Shown piece after piece: positions 20,711 through 25,267 of a DNA stretch of 64,000 nt. Both the position numbers and the translations under genes were made by a program. The DNA comes from Acidimicrobiales bacterium (lineage in GTDB: Bacteria; Actinomycetota; Acidimicrobiia; Acidimicrobiales; Bog-793), in the NCBI GenBank assembly GCA_052146895.1, contig JBKQLZ010000005.1, forward strand, positions 6,282-70,281, given 5' to 3'. The notes under the pieces were generated by a model. That model was not told the DNA's origin. It made no database searches and saw only the letters and a list, made by a program, of their open reading frames with translations. Each line of letters starts with the position of its first letter. Position 1 is the stretch's first letter.

Positions 20711-21201
20711 ATGAGTTCGGCTGCCGCAGGTGACACATCCCCGAGCGAACCCCTGCAGCCGGGTACTCCAGCCCCCGACTTCTCGCTGCCGGCCACGCCG
20801 GACCAGTTCGTGACTCTGGCGGAGCTGCATGGCCCGGTGGTCCTCGTGTTCTATCCAGCCGACTGGAGCCAGTCTGCGGCGACGAGCTCTCGATGTTCGA
20901 GGCAGCGCGCAACCTCTTTTCGCGCCGCGGCGCTCAGCTGCTCGGCATTTCCGTCGACGGGCCTTGGTGCCACGTCGCATTCAAAGCCGACCGCAAGCTC
21001 GAGTTCCCTCTCCTGGCGGACTTCCATCCGAAGGGCGAGGTCGCTCGCGCCTACGGTGTCTACCGACCACATGACGGCACCACCGAGCGGGCTCTCTTCG
21101 TGCTCGACGGCCAACACGACGTCGCCTGGAGCTACGTCTCTCCGATCGGCGTCAGCCCGGGGGTGGACGGCGCGCTCGCGGCGGTCGAGGCACTCCCATG
21201 A
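20711..21201 (+). pseudogene. peroxiredoxin (Bcp/AhpE-like), interrupted by a -1 frameshift
   Basis: Frame A reads ...PAPDFSLPA...VVLVFYPADWS. Frame B continues PVCGDELSMFEAARNLFSRRGAQLLGISVD. The junction at 20868-20871 has CC where CCC would restore PADWSPVC. Confidence 0.75.
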
Positions 21202-21737
21202 CCACCTCCGCACCCCGCCTCGCGGTGCCCGTCGGTCCGAAGGACCATGTGTCCGGGCCCGAAGACGCCACCATCACCCTCGTCGAGTACGGCGACTACG
21301 AGTGCCCGTACTGCGGGCAGGCGTTCCCTATAGTGAAAGAGCTCCAGCGGCTGTTTTCGGAGAGGTTGCGCTTCGTCTTTCGCAACATGCCGCTCGCCAA
21401 CGTCCATCCGCATGCTGAACTCGCCGCGGAGGCGGCGGAGGCTGTTGGGCTGCAGGGGAAGTTCTGGATGATGCACGACCTGCTCTACGAGAACCAGGGC
21501 GATCTCGAGGAGCGGTCGCTGCTTCGCTACGCCGAGCTGACTGGTGCAGACGCAGGCGAGGTGGCGGACGCTCTTGGTCGCCGCGTGACGCTCCCACGGG
21601 TGGAAGAAGACCTCGAGGGTGGCATCCGAAGCGGAGTGAACGGCACGCCAACGTTCTTCGTCAACGGAGCGCGCTACGACGCCTCATGGGCATTCGAGCC
21701 GTTCCGTGACCACCTTCAACGGCTGCCCGAGAAGTAG
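21198..21737 (+). CDS. DsbA-family thiol:disulfide oxidoreductase
   Basis: YGDYECPYCGQAF CxxC motif within a thioredoxin fold. ATGA overlap with the peroxiredoxin stop. Confidence 0.85.
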   Translation: MTTSAPRLAVPVGPKDHVSGPEDATITLVEYGDYECPYCGQAFPIVKELQRLFSERLRFVFRNMPLANVHPHAELAAEAAEAVGLQGKFWMMHDLLYENQGDLEERSLLRYAELTGADAGEVADALGRRVTLPRVEEDLEGGIRSGVNGTPTFFVNGARYDASWAFEPFRDHLQRLPEK

Positions 21738-21743
21738 CCGGCT

Positions 21744-22769
21744 GTGCAACTGCCAGAACGACAAGCGGTCCTTGCGCCGCTAACGGAGGCGGCGATCTTC
21801 CTTGTGCTGACAGTGCAAGCCGGTTCTGAGGAACCAGTTCGGGAGCTCCTGACAGATGTCTCCGGGCTGACGCGATCGGTCGGCTTTCGTATCCCCGATG
21901 GCGAGCTCACCTGTGTCGTCGGGCTCGGCTCCCTCCTCTGGGATCGCGTCTTCGGCGAGCCTCGACCCGCTTCCTTGCACGAGTTCAGAGAGCTGACCGG
22001 TCCGAGGCACACCGCGGTCGCCACACCTGGGGACTTGCTGTTCCACATCCGCGCTCATCGCTTCGACCTGTGTTTCGAGCTCGCCGAGCAACTGCTGCAT
22101 CGGCTTGAAGGACACGTGCGAGTAGTCGACGAGGTGCATGGATTCAAGTACTTCGAGGAGCGCGACCTTCTCGGGTTCGTGGACGGCACAGAGAACCCGA
22201 GAGCCGGGGCCGCCCTCGCCGCTGTTGCAATACAGGACGAAGATCCCTGGTTCGAAGGCGGCAGCTACGTCATAGTCCAGAAGTACCTCCACGACCTTGC
22301 CGCTTGGGACGCCCTGCCGGTGGAGCAGCAGGAGCTCGCCGTCGGCCGGTCGAAGCTGTCCGACATCGAGATGCCAGACGACCTCAAACCGACCAACTCT
22401 CACGTGGCACTCAACACCATCGTCGACGAGAACGGTGAGCAGCGTCAGATCGTGCGCGCAAACATGCCGTTCGGTCGGATCGGCGCACGCGAGTTCGGGA
22501 CCTACTTCATCGGGTATGCCCGCAGTCCGGACGTTATCGAGGAGATGTTGACGAACATGTTTCTCGGCAAGCCACCTGGCAACTACGACCGGATATTGGA
22601 CTTCTCGACGGCGGTAACGGGCAGCCTGTTCTTCGTGCCGACCGTCGACTTTCTTGACGATCCACCACCGCCGTCTACTGAGCCGGCAGACGCCACGGCA
22701 CCGAGAGTCGAGGTCGCAAGCGAGGACGGATCGCTTGGGATCGGCAGCTTGAAGGAGCCCCTGACATGA
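21744..22769 (+). CDS. Dyp-type peroxidase with C-terminal encapsulin-targeting peptide
   Basis: GFVDGTENP (GxxDG), NSHVALN proximal His region, and RANMPFG. The C-terminal tail is EDGSLGIGSLKEPLT. Confidence 0.9.
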   Translation: MQLPERQAVLAPLTEAAIFLVLTVQAGSEEPVRELLTDVSGLTRSVGFRIPDGELTCVVGLGSLLWDRVFGEPRPASLHEFRELTGPRHTAVATPGDLLFHIRAHRFDLCFELAEQLLHRLEGHVRVVDEVHGFKYFEERDLLGFVDGTENPRAGAALAAVAIQDEDPWFEGGSYVIVQKYLHDLAAWDALPVEQQELAVGRSKLSDIEMPDDLKPTNSHVALNTIVDENGEQRQIVRANMPFGRIGAREFGTYFIGYARSPDVIEEMLTNMFLGKPPGNYDRILDFSTAVTGSLFFVPTVDFLDDPPPPSTEPADATAPRVEVASEDGSLGIGSLKEPLT

Positions 22770-23185
22770 ACCACCTGCTCCGCCGGAACGCTCCTCTCAG
22801 CGACACGGTCTGGAAGATTCTCGATGACGAGGCCAGTGAACGCGCGACTCCCGCCCTCGCAGCGCGCAAGGTCGTCGACTTCTCCGGCCCACTTGGCTGG
22901 GAGCACTCTGGCGCACGACCCCGCTCGCGTCGCAGCTGATCGAGGGAGTGACAGGGCTTCAGCGACGCCTTCCCGCTCGTGGAGGTGCGTGCGGACTTCG
23001 CCCGCCAAATCGCGGTTGCAGAGAAGGTCGCCGTCTTTCACATCTCGGCGAGCGACGCGGCTGGTACCGCTTCAGCCACTGCTACGGGAGGGACGAAAGG
23101 GACCTTTGCCTCTGGTCAACCATCGACCGATAGGCCCAAGCTCGGTCGCAAGGCGAAGTGGACTAGAGGAGAACGCGATGGTTGA
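22766..23185 (+). pseudogene. family-1 encapsulin shell gene remnant (frameshifted, internally deleted, 3'-truncated)
   Basis: ATGA-coupled 57-codon ORF MNHLLRRNAPLSDTVWKILDDEASERATPALAARKVVDFSGPLGWEHSGA, with a stop at 22937-22939. Homology continues in the other two frames (PLASQLIEGVTGLQRR; FPLVEVRADFARQIAVAEKVAVFH) and ends by 23185. Confidence 0.7.
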
Positions 23186-23254
23186 GGTTCGACTCGCGCG
23201 GGGCGGGCAGGTCACACAAGCGGGCACGGACGGAGTGAGGCCGGGGCGCCAGCC

Positions 23255-25267
23255 ATGAGCGGGACGAGGCGCGGCCGTCGCTGGATGGGCGTCGCAGTGG
23301 CCTGCTTGATCGCCGGTCCTGTCTGCCTCGGGGGGATCCCGGTGGGGGCCCAGAAGGACCAGTCCCATTCGACAATTGCCCAGACATGGAGCATCCAGAA
23401 GCAATACCCCGCTTATCCTCTGCGGCTCGAGAACGCGACTGGCGTGTCATGCCCGACCGCCACCGAGTGCTGGGCCGTCGGACAGTCCGCATCCGGCGCC
23501 GGCGCCATTGCAGCTACTTCGAACGGCGGTGGGTTCTGGGCGCGCGAGTCCGTTACTAGCAGGGCCACCACCTTTAGCGCAGTGTCGTGTCCGACCACCA
23601 GCGACTGCTGGGCCGTGGGACAGACCACGTCTGGCCAGGGCGTCGTCGTGGCGACGACGGATGGCGGCGGGCTCTGGAAGACCCAGCGACTCCAGAGCGG
23701 GGTCGGCGACCTGAGCGGCGTGTCGTGTCCGACGAGCAAGGACTGCTGGGGCGTGGGGCAGTCGCCCTCGGACGAGGGCGTCGTCGTGGCGACGACGGAT
23801 GGCGGCCGGCTTTGGAAGACCCAGCCACTCCCGAGCGGGATCGGCGACCTGAGCGGCGTGTCGTGTCCGACGAGCAAGGACTGCTGGGGCGTGGGACAGT
23901 CGTCCTCGGGCGCCACAATCGTTGTAGCCATGACGACTGGTGGCACTTGGACCTACCAGTCCCTCCCGAGCGGGCTCGACTACCTCGGCGGCTTGTCCTG
24001 CCCGAGCAGCACCTACTGCTGGGCGGCGGGGAACGTGATCGGGGGCCCTGGAGCCATTGTCGTCACCAAGAACGGCGGCCGCACCTGGAGGACCCAGGCG
24101 CTGATGGCCGGAGTCGGCTACCTCGGCAGCGTCTCGTGCCCGACCAGATCCAACTGCTTCGCGGTCGGATACATGGCTTCCGGCCCTGGAGCCGTCGTGG
24201 CCACCACCGACGGAGGTCAAGTCTGGGGCTCCCCCCTCTTGAGCCCTATCAGGGTGCTTAATGCCGTGTCCTGTCCGACCACTACGCGATGCCTCGCGGT
24301 GGGACAGTCACCTGCGGGCGCCGGAGTGATCGTGGCAACTGTCAACGGCGGGCGCACGTGGAGGTTCCAGACCCTGCCGAGGACGGTCAGTAGCCTCAAC
24401 GCCGTCTCTTGCCCGACCAGCACGCACTGCTGGGCGGTGGGCCAACTTTCCTCGGGCGCCGGAGTCATCCTGGCCACCGTCAACGGCGGCCACACGTGGA
24501 ACCCGCAGACCCTTCCGAGGGGTGACCGTCACCGAGTGATCTTGGGCGTGTCCTGCGCGACAGGCACCGACTGCTGGGCGGTGGGCGTGTTGTGCACGAC
24601 TGGAAGCGGGTGCTTCACGCCTGGGGCGACCCTGGGCATCGCAGACGTCCTGGCCACTACCGACGGAGGCAGCACGTGGAGATCCCAGACGCTCCCGAGC
24701 GGAGTCGGTTACCTCAACGGAGTGTCGTGCCCGAACTCCATCGACTGCTTCGCGGGAGGACAGACCCTGACGGGCCAAGGAGCGATCGTGGACACCACCA
24801 ATGGTGGCCACACGTGGAGGTCCCGCTCCTTCGCCCTCCCGATCGGCCTCAACTTCCTCCTCGGCATGTCGTGCCCGAGCGCCAACAACTGCTGGGCGGC
24901 GGGGACTTACGCTGCGGGGGCTTACGATCTGCCGGTCGCAGCTGTCGTCGCCACCGCCAACGGTGGCCGCACCTGGAGGTCCCAACCACTCCCCCGCTCA
25001 CTGGACGTTTACAGCGAGCTCTTCGGACTGTCGTGCCCGACCACCAACGACTGCTGGACTGTGGGCTACCAGTTGGACCTCAAGTCACACGCGATGCTCG
25101 CGAGCGTCGTCGCGACCGACAACGGCGGCCACACCTGGAGATCGCAGGCTCTGCCGATTCAGGTCGGCTGGATCGGCGGAGTGTCGTGCCTGAACCGCAC
25201 CGAGTGCTGGGGAGTTGGCCTGACGACCGGCGATGTTCCATTGATCATGTCGACCGCGGGCAAGTGA
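23255..25267 (+). CDS. secreted 13-repeat Asp-box beta-propeller protein with one Cys pair per repeat
   Basis: Signal peptide (RRGRRWMGVAVACLIAG...), then 13 units of about 46 aa: xVSCPTxxxCWAVGQ...VVATTDGGxxWxxQxLP. Confidence 0.8.
   Translation: MSGTRRGRRWMGVAVACLIAGPVCLGGIPVGAQKDQSHSTIAQTWSIQKQYPAYPLRLENATGVSCPTATECWAVGQSASGAGAIAATSNGGGFWARESVTSRATTFSAVSCPTTSDCWAVGQTTSGQGVVVATTDGGGLWKTQRLQSGVGDLSGVSCPTSKDCWGVGQSPSDEGVVVATTDGGRLWKTQPLPSGIGDLSGVSCPTSKDCWGVGQSSSGATIVVAMTTGGTWTYQSLPSGLDYLGGLSCPSSTYCWAAGNVIGGPGAIVVTKNGGRTWRTQALMAGVGYLGSVSCPTRSNCFAVGYMASGPGAVVATTDGGQVWGSPLLSPIRVLNAVSCPTTTRCLAVGQSPAGAGVIVATVNGGRTWRFQTLPRTVSSLNAVSCPTSTHCWAVGQLSSGAGVILATVNGGHTWNPQTLPRGDRHRVILGVSCATGTDCWAVGVLCTTGSGCFTPGATLGIADVLATTDGGSTWRSQTLPSGVGYLNGVSCPNSIDCFAGGQTLTGQGAIVDTTNGGHTWRSRSFALPIGLNFLLGMSCPSANNCWAAGTYAAGAYDLPVAAVVATANGGRTWRSQPLPRSLDVYSELFGLSCPTTNDCWTVGYQLDLKSHAMLASVVATDNGGHTWRSQALPIQVGWIGGVSCLNRTECWGVGLTTGDVPLIMSTAGK
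23641..23916 (+). repeat. 2 x 138-bp near-identical in-frame tandem duplication inside the propeller gene
   Basis: Copy 1 (23641-23778) and copy 2 (23779-23916) share a 55-nt perfectly identical core (tcggcgacctgagcggcgtgtcgtgtccgacgagcaaggactgctggggcgtggg). About 90% identity overall by eye. Confidence 0.85.

Follow-up and report, generated by a model that had tools for sequence, protein, structure and literature searches.

An intact, encapsulin-tagged DyP peroxidase gene followed by a shell pseudogene in an uncultured Acidimicrobiales population

We examined a 64,000-nucleotide stretch of DNA from a metagenome-assembled genome (MAG) of an Acidimicrobiales bacterium (assembly GCA_052146895.1, contig JBKQLZ010000005.1, positions 6,282 to 70,281 of the forward strand). 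This whole stretch is referred to here as the window, and positions are counted from its first letter. The window carries a gene for a DyP peroxidase (21744..22769) whose product ends in an encapsulin targeting peptide, and directly behind this gene lie the remains of a gene for an encapsulin shell. These and the other coding features of the window described below are on the forward strand.

The DyP gene encodes a protein of 341 residues, which matched both Pfam DyP domains (Dyp_perox_N, E-value 7e-34; Dyp_perox_C, 5.7e-58). For the catalytic residues, the protein was aligned to the encapsulated DyP from M. smegmatis (7BOK) and to DypB (3QNR). The distal Asp of the GxxDG motif (Asp147 in GFVDGTENP), the proximal His (His220 in NSHVALN) and the distal Arg (Arg238 in VRANMPFG) were all present, and together with the two domains they place the protein among the B-type DyPs. 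An initial reading made from the letters of the window without database searches (the sequence-only reading) had taken the gene to be intact on account of FVDGTENP, NSHVALN and RANMPFG, and the domain matches bear this out. The nearest solved structure was 7BOK (E-value 5e-137), with an alignment that extends through the tag DGSLGIGSLK, and the DyP accordingly belongs to the encapsulated subgroup. The DyP presumably continues to act as a peroxide-detoxifying enzyme.

The C-terminus of the DyP reads ...EDGSLGIGSLKEPLT. A Pro/Ala-rich linker (22668..22727) connects the catalytic domain, which ends in FLDDPP, to the tag. In an alignment of 13 DyPs, this linker differed in both length and sequence, and the motifs on either side of it were conserved. 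The segment that follows (22728..22766) encodes the targeting peptide GSLGIGSLK and a further EPLT. The peptide, residues 329–337 of the 341, is a family-1 tag of the SLGIGSLK type lying no more than about 15 residues from the C-terminus after a disordered linker, and it aligns with the tag of 7BOK; its core is found both in that protein and in the EncFtn (encapsulated ferritin) cargo of related shells. Within the tag codons (Leu-Lys-Glu), 8 nt 5' of the ATG of the shell gene, we noticed the Shine-Dalgarno-like hexamer AAGGAG (22752..22757). Its position suggests that the DNA encoding the tag may double as the ribosome-binding site of the shell gene, and what is left of the shell reading frame is thus probably still translated.

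This reading frame is short. The stop codon of the DyP gene overlaps its ATG as ATGA (22766–22769), an arrangement that would couple its translation to that of the DyP, and the open reading frame (ORF) ends after 57 codons (22766..22939). Its product matched positions 1–48 of the 253 positions of Pfam family PF04454 (Linocin_M18) with an E-value of 1.2e-13 and a score of 51 bits against a cut-off of 24, and a peptide that the sequence-only reading had stitched together from several frames matched positions 1–86 (2.5e-15). We also built a custom family-1 hidden Markov model (HMM) from 53 shells and ran it on the six-frame translation of the whole window, a search that the sequence-only reading had called for. 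The remnant was the sole site detected, with HMM positions 1–49 matched at an E-value of 1.4e-18 and positions 107–137 weakly matched at 22994–23086 (0.04). This N-terminal homology, together with the position of the ORF behind a tagged cargo gene, indicates descent from a shell gene.

The lesions were mapped using the shell gene of L001, an Acidimicrobiaceae MAG that is the closest shell-bearing relative in our scan of species-representative genomes (DyP 85.6% identical). In L001, the DyP gene runs into an intact shell gene of 266 codons (801 nt) through the identical overlapping ATGA junction, and the encoded shell aligns over its full length with the solved family-1 shells 9RY4, 7BOJ, 7P1T and 3DKT. 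Compared with this gene, the window displays a 13-bp deletion after shell nucleotide 140 (window 22905/22906), so that shell codons ~52–71 (LWRTTPLASQLIEGVTGLQR; 22906..22967) are out of frame and the last part of the 57-codon ORF does not derive from the shell frame. A net −2 indel (−3/+1) at 22968–22972 then restores the original frame for shell codons 75–83 (PLVEVRADF, within 22968..22999). An exact deletion of 75 bp, or 25 codons, at 22999/23000 joins these directly to shell codons 109–122 (ARQIAVAEKVAVFH; 23000..23041), the last recognizable shell sequence. Beyond codon 122 there is no credible homology. Where codons 123–266 would be expected, a spacer is found (23042..23254) for which global alignment with the shell, the HMM, Pfam and Rfam gave no credible match. 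These codons, which in the T. maritima and mycobacterial shells correspond to the whole A-domain and to what remains of the P-domain, have been lost.

What can be recognized of the shell gene is thus codons 1–46, 52–71, 75–83 and 109–122, approximately 276 of 801 nt, or about one third. The 57-codon ORF falls far from a near-full-length Linocin_M18 match in a single frame of ~260–270 codons, and the complete HK97 fold, with A-domain and C-terminal P-domain, has no counterpart here, as codons 123–266 lack homology in any frame. Judged from its sequence, the remnant cannot build an HK97-fold shell, and no compartment would arise from this locus. The sequence-only reading had described the ATGA overlap and the 57-codon ORF as we found them, and it was right in viewing the ORF as an encapsulin N-terminus and in postulating an internal deletion of about 25 codons. 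It had distributed the segments over three frames; the second frame stands, but as −13 and −2 sum to −15, the supposed third (FPLVEVRADF...VAVFH) is the frame of the 57-codon ORF once again, and only two frames are involved. It had also followed the remnant to 23185, over ~420 nt, whereas recognizable shell sequence ends at about 23041, or possibly at 23086 if the weak HMM extension is counted. Its proposal that the shell was lost through frameshifts and deletions, with the DyP and tag kept, agrees with the base-by-base comparison with L001, to which the loss of the 3' part has to be added.

As the source is a MAG, and as the window bears a private 1-bp indel in another gene (20868/20869, described below), we considered whether the decay is an artefact of sequencing, assembly or binning, the real genome possessing an intact shell. 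An ORF with exactly the same 57-residue product was recovered on at least 11 contigs, which come from 10 samples (one MAG, two metagenome assemblies at NCBI and seven Logan assemblies made from SRA runs). Each of these contigs has an alignment to the window that covers the remnant and its downstream junction, with identities of 98.6–100%, and the 13-bp, net −2 and 75-bp lesions and the 3' junction were identical in every contig recovered with the stub. In a 571-bp alignment of five contigs, only one site varied, a G/A polymorphism at 22993. The lower overall identities were due wholly to repeat variation within the downstream gene. Because the same lesions recur in contigs that were assembled independently, the remnant is a real pseudogene and not a read or assembly error; moreover, read errors do not typically delete 13 or 75 bp, or remove 435 nt. 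We regard the artefact as effectively refuted. The pseudogene is common to all sampled contigs.

Diversity in this population is approximately 0.1%, with nearly all differences in the downstream repeat gene, and a polymorphism-based test of selection was for this reason uninformative. The stub itself is named 'encapsulin' in GenBank (MGO9557554.1, MGO9911907.1) and carries no pseudogene flag. It corresponds to the N-terminal helix and first strand of the shell, and in solved shells the N-terminal region helps to form the pocket that binds the tag, as in the T. maritima structure. We therefore considered the possibility that the stub has been retained for a function. The ATGA coupling and the AAGGAG hexamer are intact, preservation in the remnant is best over the first 46 codons (118 of 138 nt identical to L001), and the ORF is identical in all contigs. 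However, at the diversity given above, identity across contigs is uninformative on constraint. In this 46-codon part, some residues that are otherwise invariant have changed, as in the replacement of EAR by EAS, and the last 11 residues are frameshift read-through. In addition, 46 residues out of an HK97 fold would probably not fold without the rest. Taking these points together, a function of the stub seems very improbable to us.

Rates of nonsynonymous (dN) and synonymous (dS) substitution relative to L001 were then used to examine constraint on the two genes. For the DyP, dN was 0.082 and dS 0.714 (dN/dS 0.11), and for the remnant, of which 89 codons could be aligned to the shell gene of L001 (84% of their nucleotides identical), dN was 0.112 and dS 0.401 (dN/dS 0.28). 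Amino acid changes unique to the window numbered 12–17 in the DyP and ~8 in the remnant, and those unique to L001 numbered 12–22 and ~3, respectively. The counts for the remnant were obtained with ten outgroups, and its excess (8 vs 3) is suggestive but not significant on 89 codons. Several of its window-specific changes are at otherwise invariant positions (LGRT to LWRT and AENV to AEKV in addition to the EAR to EAS change). The DyP displayed no asymmetry between the window and L001, which points to a protein still constrained by purifying selection, with no acceleration in rate. The relaxation of the remnant is only modest, and the loss of the shell would thus be recent relative to the split from L001, the shell gene having probably been selected for most of the time since then and having died not long ago. 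Of the three possibilities that the sequence-only reading had named, a recent loss, a shell encoded elsewhere and a free DyP, the first is supported by both the dN/dS ratios and the counts of unique changes.

Upstream of the DyP gene is a co-directional block that begins with an AhpC/TSA-type peroxiredoxin gene (20711..21201). Its intact version in another assembly of this locus (L081) encodes 163 residues and matches AhpC-TSA with an E-value of 5.7e-33. In the window only, the loss of 1 bp at 20868/20869 shifts the frame of this gene directly before the cysteine motif PADWSPVCGDE; the window reads CC where all other assemblies covering this position (L081/L085, L086 and L088) read CCC. The frameshift is either a consensus error of the assembly or a strain-specific knockout. 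A gene for a DsbA-like thioredoxin-fold protein follows (21198..21737; Thioredoxin_4, E-value 1.5e-21; DSBA, 1.8e-15), which overlaps the peroxiredoxin stop codon as ATGA and ends 6 nt 5' of the DyP start. From this spacing, the genes for peroxiredoxin, DsbA-like protein and DyP would form a peroxide-stress block in which the DyP gene is the last one intact.

On the 3' side of the remnant lies a gene for a secreted-looking BNR/Ycf48-like repeat protein of 670 residues (23255..25267; PSII_BNR, E-value 1.9e-15). The junction between the remnant and this gene is the same in all assemblies that reach that far. The protein consists of repeated 'VSCPT..CWAVGQ' units, with 138-nt tandem repeats in the DNA (tandem units at 23582–23909), and its length is 624 residues in L088 vs 670 in the window; nearly all differences between assemblies are found here. 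This points to variation in repeat number or to collapse in assembly. A 144-codon Arg/Ser/Pro-rich ORF (22824–23258) spans the remnant in the third frame and overlaps the start of the 670-residue gene as ATGA. It had no Pfam match and resembles the off-frame ORFs that are usual in DNA of high GC content. Scans for promoters, terminators, Rfam families, repeats and compositional change around the junction gave nothing informative.

Homology to L001 is limited to positions 21726–23041, and both flanks are unrelated. The shared module starts ~18 nt 5' of the GTG start codon of the DyP gene, within the 3' end of the DsbA-like gene (21726–21743). The three nearest lineages (the window, L001/L082 and L084) carry the DyP gene in three different neighbourhoods, and among the relatives examined for synteny none displayed the peroxiredoxin/DsbA-like/DyP context or the downstream BNR gene. 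These boundaries would be expected if the DyP gene and the 5' fragment of the shell gene were a partial copy, generated by a rearrangement with a breakpoint in the shell gene, and an intact operon were present elsewhere in the genome. On the other hand, neither a second DyP nor a second shell is present in the 64-kb window, and our protein search returned a single DyP cluster at 99–100% identity. We consider a partial copy unlikely.

We also examined 80 species-representative genomes with the closest DyPs (L001–L080), from Acidimicrobiia and Solirubrobacterales, with flanks of up to 10 kb. A tagged DyP with an intact shell gene was found at 31 of the 80 loci. At 41 loci, the DyP was tagged and the fetched locus contained no shell; in 33 of these, the flanks reached 5 kb or more on either side. 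Seven loci had neither tag nor shell, one had a shell stub and no tag (L017), and a shell without a tag was never observed (0/80). Tagged DyPs without a neighbouring shell (41 of 72) are thus common in this clade and not exceptional, and the premise of the sequence-only reading, that DyP cargo sits directly upstream of its shell gene, proves unreliable here. L084, with a DyP 84% identical to that of the window, an intact tag and no shell in the locus, provides an example among the nearest lineages. On a neighbour-joining tree of the DyPs, shell adjacency changes at least 12 times. Remnants of shell genes were sought in the other 48 shell-less loci, and only L017 was positive. In this Acidimicrobiaceae MAG (L017, 10001–11300), only the ~70 first shell codons remain, behind a DyP gene that has a frameshift in its linker and a tag that can be read in a different frame; it could be a second, independent case of decay, or the result of nanopore indel errors.

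All eight tag-less DyPs also lack an intact shell, and conversely the tag has been kept in 41 of the 49 relatives that lack an intact shell. Entire shell-less clades retain the GSLGIGSL(K/R) core although their linkers are hypervariable. This argues that the tag is normally under selection even where no shell gene is adjacent, which in turn would imply a shell supplied in trans.

A candidate for such a shell is suggested by the EncFtn operons of Solirubrobacterales and other Actinomycetota. From among the shells most similar to the L001 shell, we looked up four that are 80–82% identical to it (P0178, P0208, P0202 and P0220), and all four were encoded in EncFtn-shell operons (L095, 5612–6801; L097, 5612–6801; L098, 4612–5801; L101, 4612–5801). 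The two EncFtn proteins that we translated (L095 and L097) end in ...YEDGSLGIGSLRG, with a tag, DGSLGIGSLR, that is essentially that of the DyP. This suggests that shells may be interchangeable or shared across cargo types in this clade. EncFtn is another type of cargo and no such operon is present in the window, so that its shell is a candidate acceptor by analogy only. Considering both the many tagged DyPs away from a shell gene and the same tag on EncFtn cargo, loading of the DyP into a shell encoded elsewhere is plausible.

There are precedents. 'Secondary cargo' encoded away from the shell has been described, including eight peroxidase cases such as that of Pseudonocardia dioxanivorans (Giessen & Silver, bioRxiv 10.1101/085266). 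FLP-type systems have been listed for Solirubrobacterales MAGs (Andreas & Giessen 2021, PMC8346489 supplement). The window resembles the secondary cargo in having a tagged DyP with no functional shell alongside, a state that the 41 relative loci display cleanly. It differs in that the remnant of a former operonic shell is still visible; the definition, moreover, demands a shell elsewhere in the genome.

The main alternative to loading in trans is that the compartment has truly been lost. No other shell would then exist in the genome, the DyP would be free in the cytosol, as a member of the peroxiredoxin/DsbA-like/DyP block, and the tag would be a vestige that has not yet decayed. The youth of the remnant, with its dN/dS of 0.28 and only three small indels, fits such a loss well, and so does the expected persistence of a tag without selection. 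The remnant has taken on three small indels in 366 nt. If indels struck an unselected linker and tag at this density, the two together would have escaped them with a probability of ~0.4, and the tag alone with one of ~0.7–0.8. An end state without the tag also exists, as eight of the 49 relatives lacking an intact shell are tag-less, and in four of these (L031, L041, L067 and L071) the DyP ends cleanly just past the catalytic domain. Activity in vitro is known for DyPs outside a shell, R. jostii DypB among them, and no second shell or further tagged ORF was found in the 64 kb. On the contrary, the conserved tag in the other 41 of these relatives, whole clades included, and the frequency of compatible EncFtn-operon shells in these taxa speak against a complete loss. 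We regard loss of the compartment as a serious possibility, though one that falls somewhat short of an even chance.

Taking all of these results into account, we consider it highly likely that an uncultured Acidimicrobiales population carries, at this locus, a family-1 DyP-encapsulin operon in decay. Established operons of this kind are those for M. smegmatis DyP/Cfp29 (7BOK/7BOJ), M. tuberculosis DyP/Cfp29, Rhodococcus jostii DypB-encapsulin and Brevibacterium linens. The window shares with them a DyP of the encapsulated subgroup, GSLGIGSLK after a flexible linker and a shell start codon overlapping the DyP stop, but here the shell gene is a pseudogene, spread over two frames and without codons 123–266. 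The ancestor had a tagged DyP gene whose TGA overlapped the ATG of a 266-codon shell gene, the arrangement still intact in L001/L082. In the lineage of the window, the shell gene was hit by the three small indels (−13, net −2 and −75) and lost codons 123–266. The DyP stayed under purifying selection, with its catalytic Asp, His and Arg, its linker and its tag all intact, and its gene now closes a tightly packed block with the peroxiredoxin and DsbA-like genes. A second shell elsewhere in the genome would have rendered the DyP-linked copy dispensable.

Several points weigh against parts of this reading, in addition to the small number of codons behind the relative-rate excess. Expression of the DyP and its co-transcription with the upstream genes are deduced from gene spacing only. 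As a neutral tag would often be free of indels at the density calculated above, the intact tag in the window is no evidence of selection and weighs neither way; it may have persisted simply for lack of time to decay. We could identify neither a second shell in the 64-kb window (tblastn with the intact shell; the 53-shell HMM on six frames) nor an EncFtn or another tag-bearing ORF. Among the relatives, none of the four looked-up shells came from a MAG that had also contributed a DyP locus without a shell, and in no single genome did we see a tagged DyP lacking its neighbouring shell together with a shell encoded elsewhere. A look for a trans-acting shell of the same species by accession neighbourhood gave no candidate in the MGO99119xx or MGO95575xx range.

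As to whether the tag is still in use or has become a vestige, still young, on an enzyme that works free, we lean slightly towards use, a leaning that is unproven. A more specific and tentative possibility, which we would not put at an even chance, is that a core cargo is turning into a secondary one. The ancestor would have had two near-identical family-1 shells, one linked to the DyP and one to EncFtn, both accepting GSLGIGSL(K/R). The DyP-linked copy would have become redundant and would now be on its way to erasure, and the DyP, having joined the peroxiredoxin/DsbA-like block, would be loaded into the shell of the EncFtn operon. If the same course was followed on at least 12 occasions in Acidimicrobiia and Solirubrobacterales, this would explain why the majority of tagged DyPs in these taxa have no neighbouring shell, and it would imply compartments of mixed content, with both DyP and EncFtn.

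The process itself is ordinary gene decay, here in a member of the well-known two-gene DyP-encapsulin system; our literature search found no paper on encapsulin pseudogenes. As the stub is named as an encapsulin and scores above the Pfam cut-off, genome surveys that count PF04454 matches would wrongly credit this organism with a DyP nanocompartment at this locus. The locus provides a snapshot of the breakdown of a two-gene system, in which the shell is lost first and the cargo and its tag are retained. Finally, considering that tagged DyPs are often without an adjacent shell and that EncFtn operons carry the same tag, it may be far commoner in soil Actinomycetota for different cargo types to share a shell, or for cargo to be loaded in trans, than the few reported secondary Peroxi cases suggest.

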